From Candidatus Parcubacteria bacterium (GTDB lineage: Bacteria > Patescibacteriota > Minisyncoccia > Phycocordibacterales > UBA918): a stretch of DNA of 36,049 bases. The notes below the pieces were generated by a model. That model made no database searches. It was not told the DNA's origin and saw nothing but the letters and a program-made list of their open reading frames with translations. The stretch covers positions 1-36,049 of the forward strand of contig JBJOPW010000011.1 of NCBI GenBank assembly GCA_046050355.1, written 5' to 3'. This document shows, one piece after another, positions 13,406 through 35,868 of the stretch. Both the position numbers and the translations under genes were made by a program. Numbering within the stretch: the stretch's first letter is position 1; each line of letters opens with the position of its first letter.

Positions 13406-13931
13406 GGAATCTCATATCCTCTCGCAAAACAAATGTGAGGTTCGGTCACGCTTATGGATATTTTGTATCGTTATACTCACAAAATATCTCATGCGCCCGA
13501 CCCGGACTGTTTCGGCCCTAAAGGGAACCCCAAACAATCTTTCGAATCTCACATCCTCGCGCAACGGCAAAGGCCGCAAACATATCCATGTTTGCGGCCT
13601 GCCGATTGCGGAGGATGTGAGATTCGGTTACCAGTCACTAAGTATATTTGTCGTCTCGACTCCAAATCTACTAAGTGCTGTCGACCCCACCTCACTCGCC
13701 TAACGGCTCGTTGCGGTTTTCGAATCTCAACGTGAAGCAAAATTATTTGCTTCACTCATCCTCCGCGGCCTTTTTGAGGCGCTTTATTGTACTCGCGGAG
13801 GATGTGAGATTCGAAACTTACAGTTTCAGTACCCCAATTGGATACTTTGGTTCGCTTTGCTCCCAAAGTCTCTCAATCGGGCTTCGAATCCCAGCGCAAG
13901 TGACATTTAGTCACTTGCTCATCCTCCGCGC
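13406..13931. repeat. Array of alternating inverted and direct copies of the tRNA-Ser 3' end with hairpin spacers
   Basis: Direct copies at 13608-13626 and 13794-13815; inverted copies at 13541-13561, 13719-13767 and 13883-13931; degenerate copies at 13406-13445. Confidence 0.85.
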
Positions 13932-13968
13932 AAGAAAATAACCACCCCTGGGTGGTATTTTCAACGCG

Positions 13969-14055
13969 CGGAGGATGTGAGATTCGAACTCACGAGACGT
14001 TTTACCGTCCGGCGGTTTAGTAAACCGCTGCCTTCAGCCACTCGGCCAATCCTCC
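13969..14055 (-). tRNA. tRNA-Ser, anticodon ACT
   Basis: GGAGGAT/ATCCTCC acceptor, G73, anticodon arm GCGGT-TTACTAA-ACCGC, long variable arm, GTTCGAATC T-loop; no encoded CCA. Confidence 0.9.
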
Positions 14056-14251
14056 ATATATTTCGCTGCGCTCAAATGGAGGCGCGCTACGCGGTCCATT
14101 GTCCGAGTGGCTCGGCACTATCGTGCCGGTACCATTCTGCAGCAGTGCAGAATGGTACCCAACTCGGCCAATCCTCCAATATACTCGCTTTTTTACAACA
14201 GTTGTTGTGCACGCCAGTATAGACGAAAATGACAAAAAATCAAAATTGATA

Positions 14252-14875
14252 CTAATGCGCAAAGGCGAGGAGCTGGATTGTTACATGCTTGGGAATATGC
14301 GGCTGGAGTGTGGCTCTGGCAGCCTCAAGTGTACTGCCGGTGGTAGTGACATCATCGACGAGTACCACCCGCTGTATCTTCGTCCAATCAATCTTTTGTG
14401 GTCGGTAGGCAAAAGCGTCTTTGAGGTGGTCAAGGCGGTCGGCTCGAGCGAGGTGGCTTTGGGGTGAGGTATTCTTGGTTCGTTCGAGTAGCTGATAGAT
14501 GGGGAAGTCTGTTCCTGCGAGTCCCGCCTGCAGTAATACAGCAACCTGGTTGAAGCCACGTTTCTGCTGCCGTTCGCTATGGAGGGGGATGGGGACAAAA
14601 ACAGTATCGTTTGGCTGCCAGACAGTCGTAGTGGTTAGATGGTGGGTGAGGAGGCTGCCAAGTCGCTTGAGTGCCGCTTCATTGTGTTCAAATTTGCCGG
14701 CAGTGATACTAGCTTTGATAAACGGTTCGCTGTAGTGAGAGAGCGCAGTGACTTCTGCGGCATTGGTCGGTTGGTAAAACGACAATGGTGACGCCTCAGA
14801 AAAAGCTCGGAGCACTAGCATTGACTCGCTTGGTGGAAATAAAAAATCAAGACACGTTTGCCAGATGTGAATCAT
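14252..14875 (-). CDS. comF: ComF family competence protein (PRTase domain)
   Basis: LDFLFP, VPIPLH..R...RGFNQ, LVDDVTTTGSTL; divergent from the pilus operon. Confidence 0.9.
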   Translation of the reverse strand: MIHIWQTCLDFLFPPSESMLVLRAFSEASPLSFYQPTNAAEVTALSHYSEPFIKASITAGKFEHNEAALKRLGSLLTHHLTTTTVWQPNDTVFVPIPLHSERQQKRGFNQVAVLLQAGLAGTDFPIYQLLERTKNTSPQSHLARADRLDHLKDAFAYRPQKIDWTKIQRVVLVDDVTTTGSTLEAARATLQPHIPKHVTIQLLAFAH

Positions 14876-14918
14876 GACTACAGTATACCGTTACCACTGT
14901 GGTAGTATTATAGATGAT

Positions 14919-15998
14919 ATGGGTCTCATGGATCTTTTTGTAAAGGCGTCTCCACGCCCCCGAGTTCGTGGCCGGGTGGTGGGTATTGATATTGGTTCAT
15001 CCTCAATAAAAGTGGTTGAATTAGAAGAACGCGATGGGGTAGTGACATTAACCACCTATGGAGAGTTGCAGCTCGGACCATACATCGAAGGTTCAACCAT
15101 CGGACAGGCAGTCACCTTGCCGGCCAATATTGAGCGACAAGCGTTGGTGGATATACTACGAGAATCCGCAGTAAAGGCGAAACAAGCCGTTCTCGCTATT
15201 CCGCTATCTTCGAGTTTCGTGACCACCATGAGTCTTGAGGCTGGTCCAGAGGATGATATTTCTGCTCGAGTACGGGTTGACGCGCGCAAATATATTCCGG
15301 TACCAATTGCTGATGTTACGCTGGATTGGGCAGAGTTGACGGTAAGTGGTGACGGCACCACCGCAACCAGGGATGTACTTTTGGCTGCTATTCAAAATGA
15401 TGCCCTCAAGCGCTTTCTGACGCTGATGCAGAGTGTTGAATTGCCAGGGCCCCCAACAGAAATCGAATGTTTCAGTACCATTCGGTCTATCTTTGAAACC
15501 GAAAAGCCCCACACCGCTATTATTGATATCGGGGCGAGTGTGAGCAAGTTATACATTACCGAAGATGGGCTGTTGGCACGTATGCATCGTGTCCCCACAG
15601 GTGGTATTAAAGTAACTGAGCGCATGGTAGAGGAGCGCCAGCTCTCCTTTGCTGACGCTGAAACACTAAAACGTTCCGTCACACAAACAGAACCAGATTA
15701 CGGCTGGGTACAGAAATTAACTCACGTCACGTACGGGCGTGCTATGAAAGAGTTTCGACAGGTGATAGATGAATATCAGCGACGCAGTGGATTTGATGTT
15801 TCAAATATCATTTTGACGGGCGGCGGTGCAACTGGTTTTGGCTTGGAAGCGATGGTTGCCCATGAGCTTGACCGTACGGTGTCGGTCGCAAATCCGTTTA
15901 GTAAGGTGGCCTACCCAGCCTTTATGGAAGATACTTTAACGGTGATTGGCCCAGTGTTTGCCTCAGCCCTGGGTGCTGCTCTACGGCAATTTGAATAG
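14919..15998 (+). CDS. pilM: Type IV pilus assembly protein PilM
   Basis: VGIDIGSSSIKVVEL, IIDIGA, ILTGGGA, ALGAALR actin-like ATPase motifs; likely start is ATG 14919. Confidence 0.9.
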   Translation: MGLMDLFVKASPRPRVRGRVVGIDIGSSSIKVVELEERDGVVTLTTYGELQLGPYIEGSTIGQAVTLPANIERQALVDILRESAVKAKQAVLAIPLSSSFVTTMSLEAGPEDDISARVRVDARKYIPVPIADVTLDWAELTVSGDGTTATRDVLLAAIQNDALKRFLTLMQSVELPGPPTEIECFSTIRSIFETEKPHTAIIDIGASVSKLYITEDGLLARMHRVPTGGIKVTERMVEERQLSFADAETLKRSVTQTEPDYGWVQKLTHVTYGRAMKEFRQVIDEYQRRSGFDVSNIILTGGGATGFGLEAMVAHELDRTVSVANPFSKVAYPAFMEDTLTVIGPVFASALGAALRQFE

Positions 15999-16050
15999 TA
16001 TTCCACAGTGTGCTTTAGCTACGCCTCTGTCAACAACATATAATGTGACT

Positions 16051-16800
16051 ATGCCTGATCTTCCATCATCAAGTTCTTTCATTCCTAAGCGAACAGCCGG
16101 AACAAAAATTCGTCAAAAACGGACACGAAATTTTTTCTTGCTCTCTATTCTCAGTTACGCGTGTCTAATTGCTGCCCCGACCGCTTCTGCAGCAGTGTAC
16201 GTGTATCAAATATATGCTGAACGACAATTTAATCAAATGGTTACAAGACTCGATGAAGCAATCGGTGGTTTTAGTGAAGCGGAAATGGCTCGGGTGCTTG
16301 AGTTTGATCAACGACTCAAGTTCTCGCAGCATCTTGTTGATTCACATATTTCGGTAGTAAAAGCTCTTACTGCCTTAGAAGAGGCAACGGCTCGTAATGC
16401 TGGTTTTCGCTCTCTTGCCATCAAGCGCCTTAATGAAGAGACATTATCTGTCGAAGGAGAACTCGTCACTACAGACTTTGATGTCGCGCTATTCCAGCGT
16501 GGCATATATAAGAACACAGAAGAAATACCCGTGCAAAGTGCAATCCTTAATGAAGTGGCTTTTGTGCCACCAACAGAAGATGGCGGTATTGATATAGTGA
16601 CCTTAAAAGGCGCCTTCACCTTTTCTTCAAGCGATATTGCTTTTACGGTGAATGGGGGAGATGATACAGCCGAAGCAACCCCGGCTGACGCCACTGATAG
16701 TACCGTTACTGAAAATGCTGATGACACTACTGACACTACGAGTGTTGATGTACCGTCAGATGCGGGTGAAGCCAGTGCCGTAATTGATGAGTCTCTATGA
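16051..16800 (+). CDS. PilN-like membrane protein
   Basis: Follows pilM; SSFIPK motif, single TM helix, coiled region; likely start is ATG 16051. Confidence 0.6.
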   Translation: MPDLPSSSSFIPKRTAGTKIRQKRTRNFFLLSILSYACLIAAPTASAAVYVYQIYAERQFNQMVTRLDEAIGGFSEAEMARVLEFDQRLKFSQHLVDSHISVVKALTALEEATARNAGFRSLAIKRLNEETLSVEGELVTTDFDVALFQRGIYKNTEEIPVQSAILNEVAFVPPTEDGGIDIVTLKGAFTFSSSDIAFTVNGGDDTAEATPADATDSTVTENADDTTDTTSVDVPSDAGEASAVIDESL

Positions 16801-17381
16801 TAACAAATTCTCCTTTTGTGCAGCTGTTTATGATAATCCTCGCGGTCGCGATACTCATTTTGTATATCAAGCCAGCGGTGACCGAGATTCGTGCTACACA
16901 GGATCAGATTGGCGTGTACGCCTATGAACTTGATCGTGTCACCAATGTGAACGAGCTCGTACGTTCCCATGCGGCTGCTATTGATGCGTTGCCACTATCG
17001 AGCATCCAGGCATTGGAGCGATATATGCCTGTCCGAGTTGATGAAATTGCGGTGATGCGTGACCTCCAGCATATGGTCGAAGCCATTGGGGTAAAGTTGG
17101 TTGCCCTTGAATATACGGGTCATGAGGGGGAAGAAAGTGGGGATGCGTTACCTGAAGTGACGGCTCCAACCAATCAACCAAATACAGAAAAGTTTCGACT
17201 GAGTGTTCTCACTACCTATGACAAGCTTAAAAGTCTCTTAGCGGCGATTGAAGCCAATAATTATCAATTGATGATTCAGTCAGCTGATATTACCCCCTCT
17301 GATGAAGAGAATTTACTAACAGTGGATATTATCTTAGTCGCTTATTCGCTTGAGTCAGCCAATGACGAGTCACAATTTTAA
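16797..17381 (+). CDS. PilO-like membrane protein
   Basis: N-terminal TM helix, coiled coil, 'Y..LK..L..IE...' motif; operon position. Confidence 0.65.
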   Translation: MITNSPFVQLFMIILAVAILILYIKPAVTEIRATQDQIGVYAYELDRVTNVNELVRSHAAAIDALPLSSIQALERYMPVRVDEIAVMRDLQHMVEAIGVKLVALEYTGHEGEESGDALPEVTAPTNQPNTEKFRLSVLTTYDKLKSLLAAIEANNYQLMIQSADITPSDEENLLTVDIILVAYSLESANDESQF

Positions 17382-17384
17382 TGT

Positions 17385-17705
17385 ATGATACAAAAAATTA
17401 TTTTAGGAATTGGTGCACTGGGACTCTTCTATCTTGGGTACGTGTTATTTATTCAAACAGACGAGTTTGCCCTAGAAGACAGCGCTGTTAATCCAATGGC
17501 AGACAATCTCGTAGCGAAGACGCAGGTTTTTATTGGGCGACGAGCCCAACTTGATCAAGTAGCTATTGAGAGCGCTCTATTTACTGATCCACGGTTTACA
17601 ACACTACGCTCTTATACAACTGAATTGTCTGATCAGTCAGTAGGGAAAAGTTCAATCTTCGAACTGCCTGATGCTGTGGTTAATTACAATGCTGCGAGTG
17701 ATTGA
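17385..17705 (+). CDS. Small membrane-anchored pilus-cluster protein
   Basis: N-terminal TM helix; LF.DPRF..L motif; lies between the PilO-like gene and pilB. Confidence 0.6.
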   Translation: MIQKIILGIGALGLFYLGYVLFIQTDEFALEDSAVNPMADNLVAKTQVFIGRRAQLDQVAIESALFTDPRFTTLRSYTTELSDQSVGKSSIFELPDAVVNYNAASD

Positions 17706-17716
17706 TCGTCATTACT

Positions 17717-19531
17717 ATGAATGTTCTTGATCAATTTGTCGCTGAAAAACTACTCACCGAGTCTCAGCTTGAGGCCATTGCGTCTCGGCAGGCGAGTGGT
17801 GAAGGGTTGCCACTGGAGGCAACCCTCGTTGAAATGGGTATTACTCTTGCCGATATCAAGCGGATTTTTTCAAGCTATTATGAGATCCCGAGCTTTACGC
17901 TCCCAGACGAGTTTGTGATCTCAAATGAAGTACTCTCGTATATTCCTGAAGATTCAGCACTGCACTATGGGATTACACCACTTAATCTCGAAAATGGTGT
18001 TCTGCTGGTTGGGGTTAATAATCCTGACGATCTTCAATTACGCGAAGTCCTCAACTTCATTAGTACAAAGCATAATTTACCCTACAAGCTCGTCTATTTA
18101 ACGCCTGACGAAATCAAGAAAACTCAAGCCTTTTATGCCAACATCAAAGCAGACGTCACTGACGCGCTTGATACGCTTGAAGGCGAGCTTGATGTTACCA
18201 TTGATAAAAAATCAGTTGGTGGCGATGTTGATGAGCCAGCTGACGTGATGGAACATCTAAAAGAAGATGCTCCTGTGACTAAAATCGTCGCCACGATTCT
18301 ACGCTATGCCATTGATGGTAATGCCTCAGATATCCATATTGAACCGACGGATAAGAAAGTGATTGTACGTTTCCGTGTCGATGGTGTGCTCCAGACCAGT
18401 CTTGAGCTTCCGAAGAATGTACAACTGGCAGTGTCTGCTCGTATTAAGATCTTGTCATCAATGCGACTTGATGAACGCCGCAAACCCCAAGACGGGCGTT
18501 TCTCGGCTACTTTCGATGGGCGTAAAATTGACTTTCGTGTCTCAATCTTACCAACCAGTCATGGTGAGAAGGTGGTTATGCGTATTCTCGATAACGAAAA
18601 AGGAGTACGTACCCTCGAAGATGCGGGTGTAGATGGTCATCATCTGGAAGTGATCAAGCGTATGCTCAAAGAGCCATACGGTATTATCTTGATCTCAGGT
18701 CCAACCGGCTCTGGTAAATCGACCACCTTGTATGCGATGTTAGCTGAACTCGATAAAGCGACACAGAATGTACTCTCGCTTGAGGACCCGGTTGAATATG
18801 ATATTGAAGGGGTGAGCCAGTCACAAGTTCGTCCGGAGATTGGCTACACTTTTGCTACTGGGTTGCGGGCAGCATTGCGACAGGACCCTGACATTATTAT
18901 GGTGGGAGAAATTCGTGATAAAGAAACTGCTCAACTAGCCATTCAAGCCGCTTTGACTGGTCACCTAGTACTCTCGACCATTCACACCAATAACTCAATT
19001 GGGGTTATTCCTCGACTCATCGATATGGGAGTTGATCCGTATTTGATTGCTCCAACTCTCAAACTCGCCATTGCACAACGGTTGGCTCGCCGTATTAAAA
19101 CCGGAACCGGTCGAGAAGAGACACTTGATGAAAGTATGAAGTATCGCATTGACGATACTTTTAAGACATTGCCAGAGCAGTACAAAGATCGTATACCCAA
19201 AAACCGCACTATGTTACATCCAGTGGCCAGTCCTGGTAGTACGTCAGGTCTTAAGGGGCGGGTAGCTATTATGGAAGTGCTTGAAGTCAATGAGACGATC
19301 CAGAGCTTGATTCTAAAAGGCGCTTCAGAAGAAGAGATTTATACTGAGGCGAGACAGCGTGGCTTTATGAGTATGCAGGAAGACGCCATGATTAAGGCAC
19401 TCAACCACAAGATTCCATTTGAAGAAATGAATAATTTTGGTAGTAAAGTGGGTCTTGAGGATATTAATGCCACCGCCACTCCAGTTGTCGATAACCCTCC
19501 TTCTCCTGAAACTGAAGAGGCTATACTATAG
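17717..19531 (+). CDS. pilB: Type IV pilus assembly ATPase (PilB/GspE)
   Basis: ASDIHIEP, PQDGRF, GPTGSGKSTT, LEDPVEY, LRQDPDIIMVGEIRD, TGHLVLSTIHTN. Confidence 0.95.
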   Translation: MNVLDQFVAEKLLTESQLEAIASRQASGEGLPLEATLVEMGITLADIKRIFSSYYEIPSFTLPDEFVISNEVLSYIPEDSALHYGITPLNLENGVLLVGVNNPDDLQLREVLNFISTKHNLPYKLVYLTPDEIKKTQAFYANIKADVTDALDTLEGELDVTIDKKSVGGDVDEPADVMEHLKEDAPVTKIVATILRYAIDGNASDIHIEPTDKKVIVRFRVDGVLQTSLELPKNVQLAVSARIKILSSMRLDERRKPQDGRFSATFDGRKIDFRVSILPTSHGEKVVMRILDNEKGVRTLEDAGVDGHHLEVIKRMLKEPYGIILISGPTGSGKSTTLYAMLAELDKATQNVLSLEDPVEYDIEGVSQSQVRPEIGYTFATGLRAALRQDPDIIMVGEIRDKETAQLAIQAALTGHLVLSTIHTNNSIGVIPRLIDMGVDPYLIAPTLKLAIAQRLARRIKTGTGREETLDESMKYRIDDTFKTLPEQYKDRIPKNRTMLHPVASPGSTSGLKGRVAIMEVLEVNETIQSLILKGASEEEIYTEARQRGFMSMQEDAMIKALNHKIPFEEMNNFGSKVGLEDINATATPVVDNPPSPETEEAIL

Positions 19532-19533
19532 TA

Positions 19534-19905
19534 ATGAAGATACTTCTCGTCGATGATGACACATTTTTGCGTGATATGTATGCCACTAAATTTGTGGAGT
19601 GTGGGCACGATGTGACGACCGCGGTGCATGCTGCTGATGGCCTGCGGATTATGGAACAGGATAGTTCGTTTGATTTGATTATTGTCGACATGATCATGCC
19701 GGGGATGACTGGGGTTGAGCTCATGGAGGAGTTGAGTCGGATTTATAGCGATAAAAAGTTCAAGTTTATTGTCTTATCAAATCAAGGACAAGACCAAGAT
19801 ATTGAAGAAGCCAAGGCCGCTGGTGCTATTGGGTACATTATCAAGGCGCAATCAATACCGAGTGAAGTGGTCAAACGGGTAGAAGAAATAGTTAGTGGCA
19901 CATAA
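19534..19905 (+). CDS. Single-domain response regulator (receiver)
   Basis: KILLVDDD, D.IMPGMTG, LSN, GA.GYIIK. Confidence 0.9.
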   Translation: MKILLVDDDTFLRDMYATKFVECGHDVTTAVHAADGLRIMEQDSSFDLIIVDMIMPGMTGVELMEELSRIYSDKKFKFIVLSNQGQDQDIEEAKAAGAIGYIIKAQSIPSEVVKRVEEIVSGT

Positions 19906-19914
19906 CCTGAGTGT

Positions 19915-20982
19915 ATGGCAGTTGATTACAAAAAAGAACTAGAGTTACTCATTGCGTCGGTCGTGAATGAACATGGATCAGACCTGCATTTGTCTGTGGG
20001 GAATCATCCGACTATTCGAGTGAGTGGTTCGCTGATTCCGTTACTACGCAAACCAATTTTAACAGATGCCGATGTTATGGCTTTTGCTAAAGTATTAATG
20101 CGCGGTGAATTTCTGGAGCGACTAGAAAAGCGTCAAGAAGTCGACTTTTCATTTGAAGCGGCCGGCAAGGTTCGTTTTCGTGGTAATGCGTTTCATCAAA
20201 AAGGCAGTCCTTCGATAGTGCTCCGTTTGATTCCGAACGTGATTTTGAGCCTAGAAGAATTAAATCTACCACCAATTCTTGATAGTTTTACAGAACGTCC
20301 ACAGGGCTTTTTCCTCTGCGTTGGCCCGGTGGGGCAGGGTAAGTCGACCACGTTAGCGGCCATGGTTAATCGAATTAATCAACGACGATCAGACCATATC
20401 GTCACTATTGAAGACCCAATTGAATACATTTATACGCCACAAAAAGCGATGATTGACCAACGGGAAGTTGGGATTGATACCGAGAGTTTTGAGTCCGCGC
20501 TCCATGCTGCCTTTCGTCAGGATGTTGATGTCATACTGATTGGTGAGATGCGTAGTCCAGAAACCATTGCCACCGCTGTGACAGCGGCTGAAACCGGTCA
20601 TCTGGTGTATGCCACCTTACACACTAATGATGCTGCTCAGACCATCAACCGTATCATTGACTCTTTCCCTGGTTCACAACAAGATCAAATTCGTACCCAG
20701 TTGGCCTCATCATTGATTGGTGTTTTCTCGCAACGTCTCATACCTAGAATTGCTGGTGGTCTGGTACCAGCCTATGAGTTGCTTATTAATAATGTGGCGG
20801 TATCAAATCTCATCCGTGAACGACGTATTCACGAAATCTATTCGGTGATTGAGACAGGACTTGAACACGGTATGATTGATATGAACCGCGTGTTGGCACA
20901 GTTGGTCCAAAAAGGGGAGATCACCGTTGAGAATGCCTTCCTCCATTCGTCTAATCCGAAAGGGCTAGAGCGACTTATCTAA
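19915..20982 (+). CDS. pilT: Type IV pilus retraction ATPase PilT
   Basis: SDLHL, GPVGQGKSTT, TIEDPIE, GEMR, AAETGHLV..TLHT, NLIRE. Confidence 0.93.
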   Translation: MAVDYKKELELLIASVVNEHGSDLHLSVGNHPTIRVSGSLIPLLRKPILTDADVMAFAKVLMRGEFLERLEKRQEVDFSFEAAGKVRFRGNAFHQKGSPSIVLRLIPNVILSLEELNLPPILDSFTERPQGFFLCVGPVGQGKSTTLAAMVNRINQRRSDHIVTIEDPIEYIYTPQKAMIDQREVGIDTESFESALHAAFRQDVDVILIGEMRSPETIATAVTAAETGHLVYATLHTNDAAQTINRIIDSFPGSQQDQIRTQLASSLIGVFSQRLIPRIAGGLVPAYELLINNVAVSNLIRERRIHEIYSVIETGLEHGMIDMNRVLAQLVQKGEITVENAFLHSSNPKGLERLI

Positions 20983-20983
20983 T

Positions 20984-22192: not shown

Positions 22193-22302
22193 TGAGCCTA
22201 TGGCGAATTATCGCGAGCTAAGCCTATTCCAAGTAGCTTTGTCCGCGCCGAATCACTTTGATATCCCGCCTCCTTACAGGAGCTGTCCGTCTTACAGACG
22301 CC

Positions 22303-22481
22303 GTACAGGTTGTCGCTGCTCCGCAGCTGGCAACCTTCTCCAATAACATCCCATGTTATTGGAGCCTTGTCGCTACTTTATTTCGTTTCACTCATAAAGT
22401 ACCAGGCAAGGTCTTGCGAAATGGGTCATTACATGACCAGTACAGGTTGTCGCTATTTTTAATAAAAATAGCTGGCAACCT
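22303..22481. repeat. Three REP-like palindromic units in the pilC-pilin intergenic region
   Basis: GTACAGGTTGTCGCT-[variable hairpin]-AGCTGGCAACCT at 22303-22336 and 22440-22481; variant copy at 22364-22411. Confidence 0.7.
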
Positions 22482-22755
22482 CTTGCGGAGTGATATTTAA
22501 TCACTCCTCACCCATCCCATTTCTCACCTAGCATCTGAACTAATTTGGGTCGTTTAGAAATATCTTCGGCATTATAATTTAGTAATTATAAATTTTGTTT
22601 ACAAATTGTTGTCCACACGCGTGAGGCGGTTCGGTAGAAAATACAACATATAATTACAGGAGGTCACGTACAACGTGCCTAGTTGTGCAATATTAAGGCA
22701 TACAGCTGATGTCTGAATACTCACGATTTTAATCACCTAATCTTTTAAACAACAT

Positions 22756-23214
22756 ATGTTTAAGAACATGGCACACCGTGGTTTTACGCTCATTGAGCTC
22801 CTCGTTGTGATCGCAATTATCGGTATCCTCGCCGCTACTGTACTCGCTTCACTTGGCAATGCCCGATCATCTGGTAGTGATGCGTCGATGCAGGGAAGTA
22901 TTAACAGTATGAAATCGGAAGCAGAAATTTTGTACACATCAACTAATTCATATGCGACTGTCTGTAGTGCAACGAGTACTACTAACCTCCGCAATGCTAT
23001 TGTTGCCAATAGTAATGATGGTGATGCAACTTTGACTGTCGGTGGTGCTTCAAGTGCTACCGCGGCTGCCTGTAACCACAGTGCTACTGGTTGGGCTATT
23101 GCCGCGCCACGTAAGTCATCTGGTAACGTGGTATTCTGTGCTGATAGTACCGGCTACTCAGGTAACGTTGCTAACGGTTCACTCACGGGTGGTACGGATT
23201 ATACCTGTCTCTAA
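22756..23214 (+). CDS. pilA: Major type IV pilin
   Basis: [20 protein letters not shown] class III signal, four Cys, own upstream region and terminator. Confidence 0.9.
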
Positions 23215-23233
23215 GAGTCAGTGTGGATGAAAC

Positions 23234-23262: not shown

Positions 23263-23305
23263 TTATGGGGGTTGGCAGCATCCCCCGTCCTGTATACTAG
23301 TGTAT

Positions 23306-25927: not shown

Positions 25928-28536
<2,609 letters not shown>

Positions 28537-28550
28537 TATGATGCCTACGT

Positions 28551-28847
28551 ATGACAGTTGAAGAAATTAAGCATTTAGGTCATTTGTCGCGGTTGGCACT
28601 TGATGACAAGGAAGCCCTCGCTTTTAGTCAAGAAATAGAAGCTATTTTGGCCTATGTTGGTACAGTATCCGCGATGGCGGGGGATGGTGCTTTGCCAAAG
28701 AACATCGGGGTGGTACACAATGTATTTCGATCGGATGAGGTGACGGTGACCCCTGGTAGTTACACCGAAGCGTTGTTGGAGGCTGCGCCAGACAGAGCGG
28801 GAGCGTACATTCGGGTGCAAAAAATTATTGGTCAAAGCGAATCCTAG
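28551..28847 (+). CDS. gatC: Asp/Glu-tRNA amidotransferase subunit C
   Basis: L..LSRL, IL.YV, NVFRSD, AP......VQKI; directly upstream of gatA. Confidence 0.9.
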   Translation: MTVEEIKHLGHLSRLALDDKEALAFSQEIEAILAYVGTVSAMAGDGALPKNIGVVHNVFRSDEVTVTPGSYTEALLEAAPDRAGAYIRVQKIIGQSES

Positions 28848-28848
28848 T

Positions 28849-30273
28849 ATGATGACTGCAACTGCTCTGTTAGCTGCCTATCGCGCCAAAACTACTACTC
28901 CGACCGCTGAGGTGGAGCGCGTCTTTTCGATAATCAAAGCCAAAGATGCTCGCATCCACGCATTTCTCGAAACGTATGAAACTGAGGCTCGAGCCGCGGC
29001 GGCTGAAGCAACGCTTCGTTACACCGCTGAAGCAGCAGATCTTCCACCACTCCTCGGCTTACCGATTGCAGTAAAAAATAATATTCTTGTAGCTGGTAAG
29101 AAGGCTACGGCAGCCTCAAAGATTCTCGAAAATTATGTCGCATCGTATGATGCCACTATTATTACTCGCCTCAAAGAAGCGGGAGCCATCATTATTGGGG
29201 CCACGAACATGGACGAGTTTGCGATGGGTGGATCAACGGAAAATTCGGCTTTTGGGATTACTCGCAATCCTTATGATGAGGAGCGGGTGCCTGGTGGTTC
29301 CTCGGGTGGTTCGGCGGCAGCGGTAGCGATGGAGGCAGTACCAGTAGCGCTTGGTACAGACACTGGTGGATCAATCCGTCAACCCGCCAGCTATTGTGGG
29401 TTGGTTGGTCTTAAACCTACGTACGGAGCGGTGTCTCGATATGGTTTAATCGCAATGGGGTCATCGCTTGATCAAGCTGGTCCATTAACCACCAGTGTGG
29501 CTGATGCTGCACTCTTACACCGTATTATTGCGGGTCAAGATCCGCTGGACGCTACCACGTTACCCACAGGCGCTTATGGTGAAGTGCCGGTAAAATCAAC
29601 GTATCGTTTTGGTGTTCCAAGAAAATTCTTACAAAGTGGTATAGACCCTGATGTACTTACCGCTTTTGAAGCGCACATAGCACTGCTCCGAGAGCTCGGA
29701 CACGAAGTCGTTGATATCGAACTACCCCTCTTCGAACAAGGTCTGGCGGCCTATTACATCGTGATGCCAGCTGAAGTGTCTTCTAATACCGCTCGGTATG
29801 ATGGGATTCGCTATGGACTATCAGTCGCAGGCAAGAATCTTCTTGCGGTGTATGAACAGTCTCGGGGCGCTGGTTTTGGCCCCGAAGTGAAGCGCCGTAT
29901 TCTTCTCGGCACCTACGTGCTATCGTCTGGTTATTATGATGCTTATTACGGGAAAGCGGAAGCTGCCCGTGAAGCAATGCGTGAAGAGCTACGGAGCCAG
30001 TTCACTACGGTCGATATTATTTTAACACCAACCGCGCCATCACCAGCGTTCAAGATTGGTGAACAAACTGATCCACTTTCAATGTACCGCCAGGATATAT
30101 TCACCGTCCCAGTTAATCTGACCGGTGTGCCAGCATTATCGTTCCCGATGGGAACTGTGGAGCGTGACAGTAAATCACTTCCGGTTGGGGTACAATATAT
30201 AGTGCCACATGGCGGAGAAGCACGACTCTTTGATATCGGAGAGCGTGTCTATGACTCTCGTCTCGGACAATAA
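28849..30273 (+). CDS. gatA: Asp/Glu-tRNA amidotransferase subunit A
   Basis: NMDEFAMGGSTENS, PGGSSGGSAAAV, GTDTGGSIRQPA, EVKRRILLGTYVLS.GYYDAYY. Confidence 0.97.
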   Translation: MMTATALLAAYRAKTTTPTAEVERVFSIIKAKDARIHAFLETYETEARAAAAEATLRYTAEAADLPPLLGLPIAVKNNILVAGKKATAASKILENYVASYDATIITRLKEAGAIIIGATNMDEFAMGGSTENSAFGITRNPYDEERVPGGSSGGSAAAVAMEAVPVALGTDTGGSIRQPASYCGLVGLKPTYGAVSRYGLIAMGSSLDQAGPLTTSVADAALLHRIIAGQDPLDATTLPTGAYGEVPVKSTYRFGVPRKFLQSGIDPDVLTAFEAHIALLRELGHEVVDIELPLFEQGLAAYYIVMPAEVSSNTARYDGIRYGLSVAGKNLLAVYEQSRGAGFGPEVKRRILLGTYVLSSGYYDAYYGKAEAAREAMREELRSQFTTVDIILTPTAPSPAFKIGEQTDPLSMYRQDIFTVPVNLTGVPALSFPMGTVERDSKSLPVGVQYIVPHGGEARLFDIGERVYDSRLGQ

Positions 30274-30278
30274 TCATT

Positions 30279-30938
30279 ATGCGTGAAGATGAAATTGTAA
30301 ACGCCACCTCAGCTGCTATTGAAGTTATTGGTGTTGATATGTTGACACCGCTCCTCATGTTTATTTTTGGGGCGGACGGTTTATTTGCTGGTTTTACGGT
30401 CGCTGAGGCGTCTGCTTTGTTTGCGTCATTTTGGTCAGTCTTTGCAATACTGTCTTACATCATCTCAGCGATCTTCTTGTTTTTATATGTCTATGCCTCG
30501 GTTAATGTAGGGGAATTGTATGAAGAAGAAGATCATCATAATCGTGCACTTGAAGAAGCGTATCGCCGCAAGATGACCGGCGGTGCCACTACCAGTCGCT
30601 TCAATGATATGAAAAACCATATCAATTCTGAAAATCCAAACGACTGGAAGCTTGCGATCATCGAAGCCGATATCATTCTTGATGAAGCCCTCAAGCGACA
30701 GGGGTATGCTGGTACCTCACTTGGTGAGCGACTACGGAGTATTTCACCAGCCGCGATGCGTACACTCGATGATGCCTGGGAGGCGCACAAGATTCGTAAC
30801 GAAATTGCCCATAGTGGGGTCGACTTTGTCCTCACCCACAAACTCGCCCGCGAGACGATTGTACGTTACGAACGGGTGTTTGGTGAGCTTGGTCTTTTAG
30901 ACACTGGCCATGGGGGAGGCGGTCATGGTCATCATTAA
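30279..30938 (+). CDS. Hypothetical membrane protein with Gly/His tail
   Basis: TM helix, WKLAIIEAD..LD, GERL, AWEAHK.RN.IAH (HEPN-like RxxxxH), C-terminal GHGGGGHGHH. Confidence 0.75.
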   Translation: MREDEIVNATSAAIEVIGVDMLTPLLMFIFGADGLFAGFTVAEASALFASFWSVFAILSYIISAIFLFLYVYASVNVGELYEEEDHHNRALEEAYRRKMTGGATTSRFNDMKNHINSENPNDWKLAIIEADIILDEALKRQGYAGTSLGERLRSISPAAMRTLDDAWEAHKIRNEIAHSGVDFVLTHKLARETIVRYERVFGELGLLDTGHGGGGHGHH

Positions 30939-30969
30939 TCTGAATCTGTAAACACTAGTGCAATTTTTT

Positions 30970-31833
30970 ATGGGAGCATGGGGGACAAGAATAGACGATG
31001 ATGATTTTGCGTTAGATGTAATCACAGAATATTTTGAACTCTATGATAATGGAGTCAATCCAAAATCTATTCGCAGACAACTAGAAGAGAATAATGTGTC
31101 AGAAATTGCTGATCCTGATGAAGGTTATTTATTTTGGTTTGCACTCGCAAAGGCCCAATGGGATGTTGGTTCGCTTGATGATGATGTATTCAAAAAGGTA
31201 GTACAAATAGTTGAAAGTGATATTGATACACGGAGATGGATTTCATTGGAAGGGTTTAGGCCAGAAAAACGTAAACAATCAGTAAAAGAATTTGTTGAAA
31301 AGATAAGGACACCTAGGGAGAAACCCCGTAAGCGTAAAATAAAGCGTTTAAGAAGTGCCCCGTTTGAGACGGGTGACGTGCTTGTTTTTGAGACAAGTGA
31401 CAAAGAATACGGTGCTTGTGTAATACTCTCGGCAGAAAAAGATACTGACTACGGCACACTTCAACTTGTTTTTACCAATATAAAACAAAAAAAGAAACCC
31501 ACTATTCAAAACGTTATTGATTCAAATATACTCATCTTTCTCGCAAAGCATGAATTTTATACCAAACACATAGTTGAAGCCTTTAATATAAGCGTCTTTT
31601 TCCCTAGGAAAGATAAAGATAATTGGTTAAAGTTTGAAATAATCGGCCGGGTCCAAATTAAAAAAGTACGTGAAAAAATAACGGTTCATTCTAGTTGGAG
31701 TTATCTAATTGAACCATTTGAATACAGGATTCAAAGGCAGTCGACACAAAAAATTTCCTTAAAGAAGTTTATTGGTTATTCAATTGTTCAAAAGATTAAA
31801 GTTTTGTCCATTGTTAATAATCCTCTTGCTTAA
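30970..31833 (+). CDS. AT-rich hypothetical protein (MGAWG/DUF4259-like N-terminus)
   Basis: Likely start is ATG 30970 (MGAWGT...DDD.ALD); composition differs from neighbouring genes. Confidence 0.65.
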   Translation: MGAWGTRIDDDDFALDVITEYFELYDNGVNPKSIRRQLEENNVSEIADPDEGYLFWFALAKAQWDVGSLDDDVFKKVVQIVESDIDTRRWISLEGFRPEKRKQSVKEFVEKIRTPREKPRKRKIKRLRSAPFETGDVLVFETSDKEYGACVILSAEKDTDYGTLQLVFTNIKQKKKPTIQNVIDSNILIFLAKHEFYTKHIVEAFNISVFFPRKDKDNWLKFEIIGRVQIKKVREKITVHSSWSYLIEPFEYRIQRQSTQKISLKKFIGYSIVQKIKVLSIVNNPLA

Positions 31834-31882
31834 CAACAATTACAAAACAACCACCCTTAGGGTGGTTGTTTTGTAATTGTTG
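31834..31882. terminator. Long perfect hairpin between the convergent CDS and tRNA
   Basis: CAACAATTACAAAACAACCACCC-tta-GGGTGGTTGTTTTGTAATTGTTG. Confidence 0.7.
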
Positions 31883-31950
31883 CGGGTCCCGGAATCGAAC
31901 CGGGGTCTGGAGGTTATGAGCCTCCCGAGGTACCTCTCCTCTAACCCGCT
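31880..31950 (-). tRNA. tRNA-Met(CAT), probably initiator
   Basis: GGAGG-CTCATAA-CCTCC anticodon arm, GGTTCGATTCC T arm, unpaired 1:72 (A:A), GCGGG acceptor stem resembling fMet tRNAs. Confidence 0.85.
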
Positions 31951-32052
31951 ATAGCATTAGCTGCTTTTTTGCAGTGACGAGACTATACAATGTTTTAAAA
32001 AATATTGCAAATTATTTTCTCGTTTTTCTGTCGGTGGTATACTGCTGCATAT

Positions 32053-32757
32053 ATGCAATGTGTCATTCTCGCTGCGGGAAAGGGGACTCGTCTCCGCCCA
32101 TTAACTGATAATACGCCAAAACAATTGGTGGCGGTGCAGGGTCGACCGCTCCTTGATCATATTGTCGAAGCGCTTCCAAGTGCCATCGATGAAATTATCA
32201 TGGTTGCCGGCTACCTCGAAGACCAAATCAAAGCCCATTGCGGAGACACTTATATGGGTCGCAAGATGACCTATATCACCCAAGAGACACCATCGGGGAC
32301 AGCCAAAGCACTATGGCTCTGCAAAGACCTACTCAAAGGCCGCTTTCTCTTTATGTTTGGCGATGATATCCATGGAGCGAACGATCTAGCTCGGGTGACA
32401 TCTTTTAGTCGGGCGCTTCTTGCGATGCCGACGAAGACCCCAGAGCGTTTTGGGATTGTGGTGCGTCACCCCGATGGGACGGTGGCTGAGTTTGTCGAAA
32501 AGCCAGCGCATCCACCATCCAATCTTGCCTCAACAGGGGTGATGGTACTCGATACGCATATTTTTGAATTTGATATTAAAGTCGAACGAAATGGGGAGTA
32601 CTACCTGACCGATGTGATTGCGGAATATGTCGAAAAGTATCCAATGGCAGTGGTAGAGCAAGAGCTCTGGATTCCGATTGGCTACCCTGAGGACATTACC
32701 CGCGCCGAGACTATCCTCGAAAGTCGGGAGAAAAACCTCATGTACGGCCTCGTCTAA
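32053..32757 (+). CDS. Sugar-phosphate nucleotidyltransferase family protein
   Basis: VILAAGKGTRLRPLT...PK, GTA.AL, GDD, FVEKP, GEYYLTD. Confidence 0.9.
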   Translation: MQCVILAAGKGTRLRPLTDNTPKQLVAVQGRPLLDHIVEALPSAIDEIIMVAGYLEDQIKAHCGDTYMGRKMTYITQETPSGTAKALWLCKDLLKGRFLFMFGDDIHGANDLARVTSFSRALLAMPTKTPERFGIVVRHPDGTVAEFVEKPAHPPSNLASTGVMVLDTHIFEFDIKVERNGEYYLTDVIAEYVEKYPMAVVEQELWIPIGYPEDITRAETILESREKNLMYGLV

Positions 32758-32825
32758 GGCGGGGGAAGAGGGACTAGAATAATTTTAATCTTCTGGTATA
32801 CTCCTAGCACTTCGCAAGGAGTCAT

Positions 32826-32899
32826 GTCGATGTAGCTCAGTTGGTTAGAGCGTAGCACTCATAAAGCTAAGGTCGGAGGATCGTTCCCTCCCATCGACA
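32826..32899 (+). tRNA. tRNA with CAT anticodon (elongator Met or Ile2)
   Basis: GTCGATG/CATCGAC acceptor, canonical D arm, CTCATAA loop; atypical T-loop ATCGTTC. Confidence 0.8.
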
Positions 32900-32924
32900 C
32901 AAGAAACACCCGTCAGGGTGTTTT

Positions 32925-33057
32925 GTGTTGATGGAGAACAGTCTGGGAGACTGTTTGTGAGGGAACGATGACCTTTTCTAGACGTTTGTGAGCCCTGCGA
33001 AACAAACGACAGAAAAGGTGTACTGATTCTGTAAGAATCGTCCTCCCATCGACACAA
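32925..33057. repeat. Inverted plus direct copy of the tRNA(CAT) 3' end around a hairpin spacer
   Basis: Inverted copy 32925-32969 with insert 32935-32958; direct copy 33042-33057. Confidence 0.8.
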
Positions 33058-33122
33058 TAACAAAACAACCACCTGTAAGGTGGTTGTTTTGTTATATAAT
33101 GTATAGGTAGTATCACTGTCAT

Positions 33123-33797
33123 ATGCCTATACCGAAAAATTATAATAAAGACTTTTTCAAAACCTGGTCGAGTGACATGGCGTATATTCTTGGGTTTTTG
33201 TATGCGGATGGCAACATTGTTAAAACAAAAAGAGGAACACATTTTGTTGCAATTTATACTGCAGATAAAGATTTGTTGACACAAATGCAAACATCGCTTG
33301 GTTCTGATCATAAAATTGCAGCGAGAATGTCAAATACTGGTGCAGTATATCGATTACAGATTGGAAGCCAAAAGTGGTTTGAAGATTTGCACGAAATTGG
33401 CTTAAAACCGAATAAAACTAATCGAATGTCACTCCCAGATTTGCCGTCTCAATTTATTGGAGATTTTATCCGCGGTTATTTTGATGGTGACGGAAACGTT
33501 TGGACGGGTTTGATACATAAAGATCGACCTACAAAACATACTGTGCTTCAAGTAGCATTTACTTCGGCATCCCTTGAGTTCTTAAAAGAACTACAGACAT
33601 CGTTAAAGGTATTAGGTGTTATAGGTGGTAGTGTCAGAAACTCAAATAAAGGTAATTATGCTCGACTGAGTTTCAGTACCGAGGATGCTTTGACAATTCA
33701 TAAAATCATGTATAATGGTGCCCACAAACTATATTTGCCTCGAAAGAAGCAAGTGTTTGATAAGTTTGTTAACTGCGGTGGTAGCTCAACTGGTTAG
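33123..33797 (+). CDS. Free-standing double-motif LAGLIDADG homing endonuclease
   Basis: YILGFLYADG and FIRGYFDGDG motifs; the last 23 nt overlap the tRNA-Asp 5' exon. Confidence 0.88.
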   Translation: MPIPKNYNKDFFKTWSSDMAYILGFLYADGNIVKTKRGTHFVAIYTADKDLLTQMQTSLGSDHKIAARMSNTGAVYRLQIGSQKWFEDLHEIGLKPNKTNRMSLPDLPSQFIGDFIRGYFDGDGNVWTGLIHKDRPTKHTVLQVAFTSASLEFLKELQTSLKVLGVIGGSVRNSNKGNYARLSFSTEDALTIHKIMYNGAHKLYLPRKKQVFDKFVNCGGSSTG

Positions 33798-34063
33798 AGC
33801 ACCCGCCTGTAGACGTGCAGCTTTCTGTTGGAAACGCAGATTGAAACTCTCCTGGATATCGGTGAAGGCTAAGTCTCATAGAGATATGCGAATACCGAGG
33901 GAACCTCACACATCAAAACACATAGTGTGAGGGCGCCGTAGAGACTAGATACAGGGGTACCTAAAAGTCGAAAGATTCATGGTAAAGATATAGTCCACGC
34001 CGGTACGAAAGTATTGGAAGCAGTGCACGCGGGAGGTTGCGGGTTCAAGTCCCGTCTACCGCG
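33775..34063 (+). tRNA. tRNA-Asp(GTC) interrupted by an intron (exons 33775-33810 and 34026-34063)
   Basis: Joining the exons gives CCCGC-CTGTCAC-GCGGG anticodon arm, GCGGTGG/CTACCGC acceptor, G73 and GGTTCAAGTCC T arm. Confidence 0.9.
33811..34025 (+). ncRNA. Group I intron at anticodon position 35/36
   Basis: Exon ends in U that can pair with G in P1 (CTGT/GCAG); P7 elements GTAGAGACTA and AAGATATAGTCC; terminal G; 215 nt with no ORF. Confidence 0.88.
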
Positions 34064-34103
34064 CAGTTATACAAAAGCAGTCCGAACAGGACTGCTTTTG
34101 TAA

Positions 34104-34484
34104 TATAACTGGAGCGAGTAGACGGGACTTGAACCGAGGTGCGACGAAGTCCGCAGACGAGCTTTGCGAGTCGAGGACCGCACCGAGTGGAGGTCAATAG
34201 AGTGAGTTAGATTATGAGAGAAACGAAATAATCTAACCACGAGAGTGACCAAGTCCCGTCTACCGCGCAGTTAGGTAAACACAAAACACGGCTTAATAAC
34301 TATGCCGTGTTTTGTGTTTAGCAAGCAAACTGCTTTGCTTGCGTGCCTAACTGCGAGCCGGAGACATGTCGCTTAGCGACAGTCGAGGTGGGGTCGAGAG
34401 TACTTACCAGAATAGGAGCAAAGCGAACTATTCTGGTTAGTAACTCGTGACCAGTTAATTATTTGTGACCAAGTCCCGTCTACC
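34104..34484. repeat. Inverted and direct copies of the tRNA-Asp 3' end with hairpin spacers
   Basis: Inverted copy 34118-34135; direct copies 34250-34273 and 34470-34484, both preceded by GTGAC; degenerate inverted copy near 34347-34368. Confidence 0.85.
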
Positions 34485-34504
34485 CAAGATGCTATAATAT
34501 ACGT

Positions 34505-35101
34505 ATGCCAAAATCCCTCATCCCAGTTGTATCATTTTCCGCCTTATACCTTATCGCTGGGGGTATCTATTTCTTTCGTGACCTCAACCTCGAATTTGTC
34601 ATCTACGTGGCAGTAATCGTAGCTATCTTTGCGGGTGTATTTGCGACACTGCGCCACACACAATTTCCGGTCTGGATGTTGTGGTTCCTCTCTATCTGGG
34701 GACTGATGCATGTGGCTGGTGGGGCAGTGCAGACGGTTGATGGGGTCCTCTTTGCATACAGGATTTATCCCTTCCTTGATCTGGGGGGAGATTTCTACAT
34801 CCTCAAGTACGACCAGGTGGTCCATGCGTATCTCTATGGACTCGTAGCGATGATGGCGTATCACACACTACGGGTACCCTTAGGTATCAAGGGACATACT
34901 TTTCTTATTGCCTTGGCTGCTGCCATGATTTCACTTGGGATTAGCGGACTTAATGAAATCATGGAATTCTTGATTGCGGTGACGGTTGAGCGCAATGGTG
35001 TCGGCGGCTATGAAAATGCCATGCTTGATCTCATCTTTAATGTGAGCGGGGCCACCATTGCAGTGGTGGGGTATAGTATTGCTGTTTGGTGTAAAAGATA
35101 A
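34505..35101 (+). CDS. DUF2238-like integral membrane protein
   Basis: Multiple TM helices; H..GG, YDQVVH, NEI.EF, D motifs. Confidence 0.7.
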   Translation: MPKSLIPVVSFSALYLIAGGIYFFRDLNLEFVIYVAVIVAIFAGVFATLRHTQFPVWMLWFLSIWGLMHVAGGAVQTVDGVLFAYRIYPFLDLGGDFYILKYDQVVHAYLYGLVAMMAYHTLRVPLGIKGHTFLIALAAAMISLGISGLNEIMEFLIAVTVERNGVGGYENAMLDLIFNVSGATIAVVGYSIAVWCKR

Positions 35102-35105
35102 ACCT

Positions 35106-35654
35106 ATGTCCTTAGAGCAAGTTCCTGAAATTACCATTGGTCCAAGTACACCGGAAGATTACGAAGCTTGTTTGCGGATTCAACAAGCTGCGGCTCTTGA
35201 ACGGTACCCAAATAGTGAGATTGGTATTACTCGAGAAGATATCGAAGCTGACTATGCACCATATGTACAAAGTGAGGCTATAACAACAGAAACAAACCGA
35301 ATTGCTGCTACTGAACCTGATATCAACCATGCTCAGTTAGTAGCCAAAGAGAATGGTCAAGTGGTGGGCTTTTGCGACATAAAGGTCGAAGCAGAATACA
35401 ATCAATTGTTGAGCTTCTATGTTGACCCATTACAACAGTCACGAGGCATAGGGAAAGCGCTTTGGGCTGAGGCGCAAAAGAAGCTTGTTTCCAAAAACCC
35501 GACAATTGTCTACGTATTACCATACAATGAACAAGCCATTGCTTTTTATGAATCGCTTGATTTTATGATGACCGATTCTGTATCTGACAAGACGGGTAGC
35601 TTGATGGCAAGCGGAGCGGTGATGCCAAAACCGGTACTTATGATACGACAATAA
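35106..35654 (+). CDS. GNAT family N-acetyltransferase
   Basis: YVDP..QSRGIGKAL and N..AI.FY...F motifs; likely start is ATG 35106. Confidence 0.85.
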   Translation: MSLEQVPEITIGPSTPEDYEACLRIQQAAALERYPNSEIGITREDIEADYAPYVQSEAITTETNRIAATEPDINHAQLVAKENGQVVGFCDIKVEAEYNQLLSFYVDPLQQSRGIGKALWAEAQKKLVSKNPTIVYVLPYNEQAIAFYESLDFMMTDSVSDKTGSLMASGAVMPKPVLMIRQ

Positions 35655-35684
35655 CAAAAGACTCCCGTAAGGGGAGTCTTTTGT

Positions 35685-35868
35685 TATGTGAGCCAACGCC
35701 CAGGATTGGTCACGAATCACTAAGTAGAATCTTTCACTACGTTCAGATTCTACTAAGTGTTCTCGACCCCACCTCGCGGTTTTTGCTTTTTTGTGAAGCA
35801 AAAACATCGCTGCGGTTTTCAATTCTGGACGAAAGCCAAACTAATGGCTTTCTACATCGGCTCACATA
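35685..35868. repeat. Direct plus inverted copy of the tRNA-Thr 3' end around a hairpin spacer
   Basis: Direct copy 35685-35706; inverted copy 35818-35868 with insert 35829-35853. Confidence 0.8.

Follow-up and report, generated by a model that had tools for sequence, protein, structure and literature searches.

The window analysed here is an entire 36-kb contig (36,049 nucleotides (nt); GenBank JBJOPW010000011.1) of a Candidatus Parcubacteria bacterium, whose genome (G000) has a size of 0.94 Mb and is 99.97% complete. Four inverted copies of tRNA 3' ends in this window, each interrupted by a small hairpin, were found to be the 5' arms of modular units rather than isolated duplications. Selection maintains the cores of these units and their hairpin as RNA structures on the tRNA strand. 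The units themselves undergo gain, loss and tandem duplication, and some are nested in others. They belong to a large and apparently undescribed family of elements that lie behind tRNA genes and, rarely, beside a 5S rRNA gene or behind a protein gene. We tentatively interpret the split copies as the arms of structured-RNA elements, mobile or duplicative, which form a family spread across the class and may clasp the host gene at its 3' end.

Hairpin-split antisense copies of tRNA 3' ends

ARAGORN identified tRNA-Ser(ACU), two tRNA-Met and tRNA-Thr(GGU) in the window and, when introns were allowed, also tRNA-Asp(GUC) containing a 215-nt group I intron. The first-pass annotation of this DNA had described four hairpin inserts in inverted copies of three of these tRNAs, and all four were found exactly where it had placed them. 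The copy around each insert is the reverse complement of tRNA positions 54-72 and lies on the strand of the tRNA, downstream of it. Read on that strand, the insert consists of AG, a hairpin of 8-10 bp and then CGT, CGC or TGT. The two inserts behind tRNA-Ser (13730-13756, AG..CGT, or ACG..CT in the inverse orientation; 13894-13919, AG..CGC) interrupt the copies at 13719-13764 and 13883-13927, and the insert behind tRNA-Met (32935-32958, AG..TGT) interrupts the copy at 32927-32969; all three lie at site 64/65. The insert behind tRNA-Thr (35829-35853, AG..CGT; copy at 35818-35861) can be placed at 64/65 or 65/66, because one T is assignable to either side. The window also contains unsplit antisense copies at 13541-13559, 13404-13422 and 34110-34133, and a fifth hairpin of the AG..CGY family at 34320-34344.

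A larger sample was obtained from G000 and a complete congener (G007), which together have 87 tRNAs. As a control we used 50 shuffles per tRNA, and the opposite strand and the upstream side were searched as well. At least one hairpin-split copy was present downstream on the tRNA strand for 23 of the 87 tRNAs, against a shuffle expectation of 0.04. The opposite strand downstream gave one copy, and the upstream side none on either strand.

We also compiled by hand a list of 23 hairpin-split copies at 22 tRNAs. Three rows were left out: Gly-gcc of G000, where the insert is not a simple hairpin; Phe of G007 at offset 25, where two copies overlap; and a Cys row of G000, which is the Leu-taa copy viewed from the neighbouring tRNA. 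The inserts are located at the boundary of acceptor and T-stem, at 64/65 plus or minus one base: nine copies are unambiguously at 64/65, seven are ambiguous but compatible with it, five are at 65/66 and two at 63/64. The insert starts with AG in 21 of the 23 copies and ends with CGT in 14, TGT in three, CGC in two, and CGG, CAT, CGA(G) and GGG in one each. Position and ends are therefore non-random, and the conserved ends reported for the window recur in the larger sample. The single insertion position of the first-pass annotation holds only to within one base; random sites and ends, which that annotation had named beforehand as counting against its proposal, did not appear. The hairpin lies 10-12 nt upstream of the core, and where the arm ends at T-loop position 54, this fixed spacing explains why the hairpin falls at 64/65.

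Architecture of the trailing units

In the 5' to 3' direction on the tRNA strand, a unit consists of the trailer with a terminator-like hairpin, the antisense arm with the conserved hairpin, a core and a second terminator, the last two often separated by a sense copy of the tRNA 3' end. The units measure 130-250 nt and contain no gene. The antisense segment that follows the AG..CGY hairpin covers 10-12 nt complementary to the 3' end of the host gene, often with 7-8 nt more on the other side of the hairpin. The sense copy starts midway through the T-loop and stops a few bases beyond the discriminator.

At least three kinds of core can be distinguished. In type I (Met, Ser unit A), a long hairpin with a GAGC-NNN-GCGA tip precedes GUACUG and a further hairpin, whose loop is CUGUAAG. 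Type II, found behind Thr and in Ser unit B and Asp unit 2, has a variable hairpin and, in addition, a long one with a GGUCG/UGACC closing helix. Ser unit C and Asp unit 1 have type III, the core that stands behind unsplit antisense copies. In some type II units, those of Arg and Leu and Asp unit 2, the segment after the AG..CGY hairpin is 11 nt long and antisense to the trailer. The units of the window and their hosts are as follows, where R1 denotes the covariance model of the type II core that is described in the next section.

13968..14055, minus strand: tRNA-Ser(ACU), host of four trailing units (ARAGORN; Rfam tRNA model, 54.4 bits)
13928..13967, minus strand: trailer and terminator-like hairpin between tRNA-Ser and unit A, at the apex of the palindrome formed by tRNA 3' end and antisense arm (sequence reading and folding)
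13883..13927, minus strand: Ser unit A, antisense arm (complement of tRNA 54-72), split at 64/65 by hairpin 13894-13919 (AG..CGC)
13813..13882, minus strand: Ser unit A, type I core (compensatory change at 16 of 21 pairs in 15 cores)
13797..13812, minus strand: Ser unit A, sense copy of the tRNA 3' end, 16/16 identical
13719..13764, minus strand: Ser unit B, antisense arm, split at 64/65 by hairpin 13730-13756 (AG..CGT)
13626..13721, minus strand: Ser unit B, type II core (R1, 79.9 bits; covariation)
13610..13625, minus strand: Ser unit B, sense copy of the tRNA 3' end, 16/16
13444..13559, minus strand: Ser unit C, unsplit antisense copy 13541-13559, then a type III-like core (R1, 34.3 bits)
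13404..13422, minus strand: Ser unit D, decayed unsplit antisense copy
14056..14176, minus strand: mirror-image unit upstream of tRNA-Ser, with hairpins surrounded by copies of the tRNA 5' end, both sense and antisense; compensatory changes accompany its conservation in G007
22260..22530, minus strand: nested type I-kind cassettes with no tRNA nearby, one cassette within the loop of another's hairpin
32826..32900, plus strand: tRNA-Met(CAU), host (ARAGORN; Rfam)
32927..32969, plus strand: Met antisense arm, split at 64/65 by hairpin 32935-32958 (AG..TGT)
32970..33041, plus strand: Met type I core; G007 orthologue with compensatory changes
33042..33054, plus strand: Met sense copy (T-stem 3' strand, acceptor 3' strand, discriminator), then a terminator hairpin to about 33096
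33775..34064, plus strand: tRNA-Asp(GUC) with 215-nt group I intron, host of two units (ARAGORN with introns; Rfam Intron_gpI, 43.7 bits against a gathering score of 50)
34110..34266, plus strand: Asp unit 1, unsplit antisense copy 34110-34133, core, sense copy 34251-34266
34320..34486, plus strand: Asp unit 2, hairpin 34320-34344 (AG..CGT), 11-nt trailer antisense 34345-34355, type II core 34353-34452 (R1, 100.4 bits), sense copy 34471-34486
35906..35979, minus strand: tRNA-Thr(GGU), host (ARAGORN; Rfam)
35818..35861, minus strand: Thr antisense arm, split at 64/65 or 65/66 by hairpin 35829-35853 (AG..CGT)
35708..35820, minus strand: Thr type II core (R1, 124.8 bits)
35692..35707, minus strand: Thr sense copy of the tRNA 3' end, 13/16, then a terminator hairpin at about 35650-35690

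The anticodon of tRNA-Ser(ACU) (13968-14055) is unusual for bacteria. The gene is conserved in G007 and has structured units on both its 5' and its 3' side.

Cores and hairpins as structured RNA

Nine type II paralogues show compensatory change at 23 of 35 pairs and were used to build model R1, which found 52 copies in about 1 Mb of sequence. In the alignment of these 52 matches, which was fitted to R1 and thereby favours the pairing figures, 93.3% of the cells are paired, versus 67.4% after shuffling and about 35% after sliding. Covariation was seen at 34 of the 35 pairs, and the observed values were reached by none of 500 shuffles. One near-invariant pair is G·U in 37 of the sequences. Likewise, in the 15 type I cores, where 16 of 21 pairs show compensatory change, one pair is U·G in five sequences. 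A G·U pair becomes a C·A mismatch on the opposite strand, and the fold therefore belongs to RNA made in the direction of the tRNA. Nearly all tRNA-adjacent modules lie on the strand of their tRNA. A count of wobble pairs in simple hairpins downstream of tRNAs, which includes terminators, duplicates and hairpins outside the units, gave the same but weak bias (48 G·U versus 24 A·C).

The hairpins, too, are conserved as structures. The first-pass annotation had stated that their stems differ in sequence and keep their pairing, and the comparison of G000 with G007 bears this out: the Met hairpin shows two double changes and the Thr hairpin one, all of which preserve the pairs. Several differences in the stems of the core tips preserve pairing as well. 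The letters of the Thr trailer and terminator have diverged strongly between the two genomes, with the palindrome retained. Two or three RNA motifs supported by covariation, present in about a quarter of the sampled genera of the class, are missing from Rfam 15.

Chance or slippage duplication of tRNA ends, with unselected structure, is accordingly extremely improbable as an explanation: some arms have decayed, and quasi-palindromes can become perfect by template switching without selection, but neither fact accounts for 23 observed copies against 0.04 expected, their specificity for strand and side, the compensatory changes in hairpins and cores, or the conservation of these features across the class.

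Gain, loss and distribution of the units

The units turn over rapidly. At the orthologous tRNA-Thr locus of eight relatives, the same type of unit was found in two, a variant with an 85-nt tandem repeat in one, an inverted type I unit in one, a short remnant in one and no unit in three. The 85-nt repeat (locus L030, contig C30 of genome G015, behind tRNA-Thr(GGU)) is exact, follows the core and spans T-loop, terminator, antisense arm and hairpin, and looks like a recent tandem duplication. The initiator tRNA is without a unit in G000 and has one in G007; tRNA-Met has one unit in G000 and two in G007; and the Asp and Ser loci carry different unit types in the two genomes. Furthermore, sequences from four runs contained a joint of depth 2 that connects 34261 to 34438; it might derive from a relative without Asp unit 2, in material that consisted of contigs, mostly with tRNAs of other organisms and broken at repeats.

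Across the class, the type II core was present in 34 of 121 sampled genomes and in 26 of 103 genera. The layout of the unit recurs in other families of the class, with an AG..CGT hairpin at 64/65 behind tRNA-Ala and tandem units behind tRNA-Thr. One type II unit (L170; contig C13 of genome G096, 12046-15135) follows a gene for a zinc-ribbon protein and is flanked by antisense and diverged sense copies of the last 40-60 nt of that gene; the sense copy can still be translated into a similar peptide.

Cassettes of the type I kind also occur beside a 5S rRNA gene. At about 125150-125330 of contig C2 of G000, the 5S gene is immediately preceded by an incomplete copy of its own 5' end, in which a type I-like cassette is embedded. 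A strand that is complementary to this 5' end closes the cassette, with one G·U pair. Nested type I-like cassettes without a nearby tRNA were seen on contig C7 of G000 (17000-17800, L020), as at 22260-22530 of the window. Among these nested arrays, one cassette lies in the hairpin loop of another and one inside a type II core.

These bacteria, members of the Patescibacteria (candidate phyla radiation, CPR) with genomes below 1 Mb, nevertheless carry hundreds of bases of folded, conserved RNA modules with fast turnover behind a large share of their tRNA genes.

Proposed function of the arms

In the interpretation that we tentatively favour, the unit would be transcribed by read-through from the tRNA promoter. 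The antisense arm would pair with the sense arm or, if that is missing, with the tRNA end across the terminator. Pairing of the arms is predicted to give helices of 8 and 11 bp with the hairpin at a three-way junction. The product would be a compact RNA, closed by a helix that mimics the stacked acceptor and T-arm of the host tRNA. Because of this mimicry, RNase P and the CCA-adding enzyme could handle the unit RNA like a tRNA. At the DNA level, recombination between the tRNA end and its copy, which form a direct repeat, could add or remove units and lengthen tandem arrays. If mobile, the units would represent a mode of spreading that copies and anti-copies the end of its target, for which we found no match among described elements.

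The first-pass annotation had likewise proposed a selected three-way junction, formed by the antisense copy with the tRNA end or the direct copy, instead of random duplication. Selection is supported by the specificity for strand and side, the compensatory changes, the conserved junction letters, the recurring layout and the arms that are still complementary; the junction, its partner and a benefit to the host stand as proposals. When units were folded in isolation, three of the four were predicted to close through antisense and sense arm, with the hairpin as a branch.

Several observations weigh against this interpretation. In predicted folds of the read-through RNA, the antisense arm pairs with the tRNA's own 3' half, with the terminator at the apex; the distal sense copy pairs in these folds with the 5' strand of the tRNA. 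The sense arm is decayed or absent in many units (e.g. Thr and initiator Met of G007, and Ala-tgc, His and Phe of G000), so that closure by two arms is not general, and the antisense arm frequently matches the tRNA better than it matches the sense copy. Some type II units (Arg-gcg, Arg-tct, Leu-gag, Asp unit 2) have an antisense segment that reaches no further than the trailer and 3-4 nt of the tRNA and makes no tRNA-like helix. Mismatches in the arms are of both the G·U and the A·C type, so that the signal for an RNA strand is clear for the cores and not for the arms. Moreover, the origin of the tRNA-specific arms is left unexplained, and our searches of the genome revealed no mobility enzyme that could be linked to the units. 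Finally, RNase P RNA, the CCA-adding enzyme and RNase III are all present in G000, but RNase Z was not found in the whole genome (best match 24.6 bits, cut-off 293), which leaves one step of tRNA-like processing without a candidate enzyme.

Alternative explanations

It is possible, though unlikely, that the units are cis-acting signals for processing or decay. The antisense arm of the read-through RNA would then pair with the 3' half of the tRNA and the trailer into a duplex of 35-45 bp, with the terminator at the apex, that is cut by RNase III or another nuclease. The cut would help to make the tRNA 3' end without RNase Z or would destroy the read-through RNA, and the hairpin would allow the tRNA to refold by dividing the duplex into two short helices. 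This fits the predicted read-through folds, the presence of RNase III where RNase Z was not found, and the palindrome that runs unbroken from T-loop through trailer and terminator to antisense arm and is kept in G007 despite different letters. At least 13 antisense arms are complementary to their tRNA over 19 of 19 positions. Encoded CCA is absent from 34 of the 42 tRNA genes of G000, most of which end with the discriminator followed by C-A (N73-C-A), and antisense copies are commoner at genes without CCA (32 of 72) than at genes with it (2 of 16; Fisher p 0.02, an overstated significance, as G000 and G007 are kin). An action on tRNA ends would bear on 3'-end formation in an organism in which most genes lack CCA and RNase Z was not found. 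However, 40 of the 72 CCA-less tRNAs have no antisense copy, and orthologous tRNAs differ in having one; therefore, it is not a required processing step. The explanation also fails to account for the cores, sense copies, tandem arrays, nested cassettes and the unit behind a protein gene. Furthermore, the distance from the hairpin to the tRNA 3' end varies, the hairpin being opposite 64/65 in some units and past the trailer in others.

Equally doubtful, in our view, is a purely DNA-level explanation, in which the units are miniature integrated or transposed elements and the sense copy represents the target's original 3' end, displaced as it is at the ends of islands in tRNA genes. Palindrome and hairpin would be sites for a recombinase or a single-strand transposase, or would result from template switching at the terminator hairpin, and the core folds would matter only for stability. 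Each unit is indeed flanked by direct repeats of the target 3' end. Differences in presence and absence, tandem copies, one inverted unit and cassettes nested at hairpin loops agree with this explanation, as do the two copies of the gene end at the protein-gene unit, which are about three-quarters alike (estimated by eye) and fit an old duplication or an element-borne copy. The genome encodes one IS200-like and three RAYT-like Y1 transposases, which act on DNA hairpins, and two tyrosine recombinases. Conversely, the near-invariant G·U pair and the U·G pairs are strand-specific and fit RNA rather than double-stranded DNA. The flanks of the Y1 genes contain other palindromes and none of the modules, the units are without a gene, arms that differ per tRNA are not explained by a site that a protein specifies, and the left flank of the hairpin has no common target word.

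A long shot is that the cores and the AG..CGY hairpin are a new type of programmable RNA, in which the segment of 10-12 nt docks on the 3' end of an upstream stable RNA and the core cleaves itself, as new ribozyme classes, or directs RNase P or RNase III. If so, the units would be either selfish elements that exploit tRNA promoters or, in a lineage in which no RNase Z was found, an RNA-based means of making tRNA 3' ends.

Very doubtful, too, is an RNA-guided element, whose variable segment of 10-12 nt would be a guide that docks on RNA or DNA of the host gene 3' end, for homing, for self-cleavage from the co-transcript or for directing a protein. In nine aligned type II units, hairpin and core are constant, and the antisense segment between them varies in sequence but not in length. 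Its target varies, being the T-arm for Thr and Ser and the trailer for Arg, Leu and Asp. The junction letters are conserved, and many core nucleotides are invariant. The guide matches adjacent sequence in cis, however, and plain intramolecular folding explains the segment equally well. No candidate effector was found: the IS110 DEDD recombinase (PF01548) and TnpB (PF07282) gave no match in the 99.97%-complete genome, and the sole reverse transcriptase belongs to a diversity-generating retroelement. No known ribozyme family matched either: in the Ser and Met-Asp-Thr regions, the models of hammerhead, twister, pistol, hatchet and HDV-like ribozymes gave no hit even at E values up to 10.

Comparison with known elements

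At gathering scores, Rfam 15 recognised only four tRNAs and LOOT RNA in the window. With E values up to 10, the Ser and Met-Asp-Thr regions gave only tRNAs, matches at chance level and one group I intron match inside tRNA-Asp; six further loci gave tRNAs only. The units are not tRNA or tRNA-like genes, as none was called by ARAGORN or by the Rfam tRNA model. They are also not tRNA gene copies with a replaced middle, since their 5' arm is truly complementary to the 3' strand and extends over the complement of the T-loop; in the unit of tRNA-Ala(UGC), the 5' arm has A rather than G opposite U70. The GAGC-NNN-GCGA tip resembles stem II of the hammerhead ribozyme (our own reading of the motif, made without a tool), but the CUGA turn is absent.

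Repetitive extragenic palindromic (REP) sequences and the related BIME and REPIN are short, non-coding, hairpin-forming mosaics present in many copies, with RAYT transposases as companions. They lie where transcription units end, show a strand bias and form tandem as well as mixed arrangements. The units resemble them in being short, hairpin-forming, multi-copy and strand-biased, in their placement at 3' ends and in the presence of RAYT-like genes in the genome. In contrast to REP sequences, they have arms copied from the neighbouring gene and much larger cores with RNA-type covariation and a conserved G·U pair. The AG..CGY hairpins, with many copies and conserved stem and flanks, were themselves considered as REP-type palindromes, for which a role as transposase site is a candidate only. 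The Y1 genes of G000 (one IS200-like and three RAYT-like; C7:24316-24675, C2:111467-111718, C1:6036-6263 and C1:69263-69484) are flanked by long GC-rich palindromes of another repeat family, and 400 nt on either side of them held no modules, whereas in a REP/REPIN-RAYT system the mobilised repeats flank the RAYT gene.

Islands and phages integrated in tRNA genes are bounded by attL/attR repeats, which comprise the tRNA 3' end beginning in the T-loop. The units share with them a direct repeat of this part on both sides, of which the proximal copy keeps the tRNA intact. In the window, sense copies of the tRNA 3' end lie at 13797-13812, 13610-13625, 33042-33054, 34251-34266, 34471-34486 and 35692-35707. 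The units differ from islands in their length of 130-250 nt, the absence of genes, the additional antisense copy and conserved hairpin, and in that the same cores occur behind many different tRNAs with arms that match each. In contrast to an integrase-type island, the units contain no integrase; the genome's two tyrosine recombinase genes are located elsewhere, on contigs C8 and C4.

Rickettsia palindromic elements and other bacterial miniature inverted-repeat transposable elements (MITEs) insert into RNA and protein genes. Like them, the units are small structured repeats that are tolerated in or beside essential genes and are patchily distributed among relatives; unlike them, they have no fixed terminal inverted repeats, and their termini are local copies of the target.

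H/ACA guide RNAs for pseudouridylation bind their target on both sides of a hairpin. The units similarly have an antisense sequence split by a hairpin, for which pairing with the target would yield a three-way junction. Unlike H/ACA RNAs, they leave no target nucleotide unpaired, have no ACA box, and lie adjacent to their target in cis. We know of no partner proteins for guide-like units in this bacterial lineage.

A further likeness concerns tRNA-like processing signals in longer transcripts, such as the mascRNA of MALAT1 (PMC8457004). There, as in the units, a helix that mimics the acceptor/T-arm stack could recruit tRNA-processing enzymes to cut a transcript that is not a tRNA. In the units, by contrast, the mimicry would be a two-helix stack made of copy and anti-copy, without the elbow of the T-loop, and processing is a prediction only. 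Full-text searching of the literature yielded no account of such elements in the text that it covered; the supplements of PMC5737381 may list related motifs.

Other features of the window

A free-standing open reading frame for a LAGLIDADG endonuclease (33123-33797) runs into the 5' end of tRNA-Asp(GUC). The group I intron of this tRNA is in the anticodon loop, and the G007 orthologue is without an intron.

The window also contains a diversity-generating retroelement (286-2393), with a reverse transcriptase gene on the minus strand (987-2036) and bAvd on the plus strand (2040-2393). This is the only reverse transcriptase gene, and a retron was rejected because the gene stands beside bAvd, at least 11 kb from the units. 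Repeats of a diversity-generating retroelement were likewise rejected as a source of the copies, as the differences between tRNA and copy are not adenine-specific. Beside the retroelement lie a LOOT RNA (286-404, 89.6 bits) and a gene for a tRNA_anti-like OB-fold protein (360-950). The LOOT RNA may belong to the retroelement.

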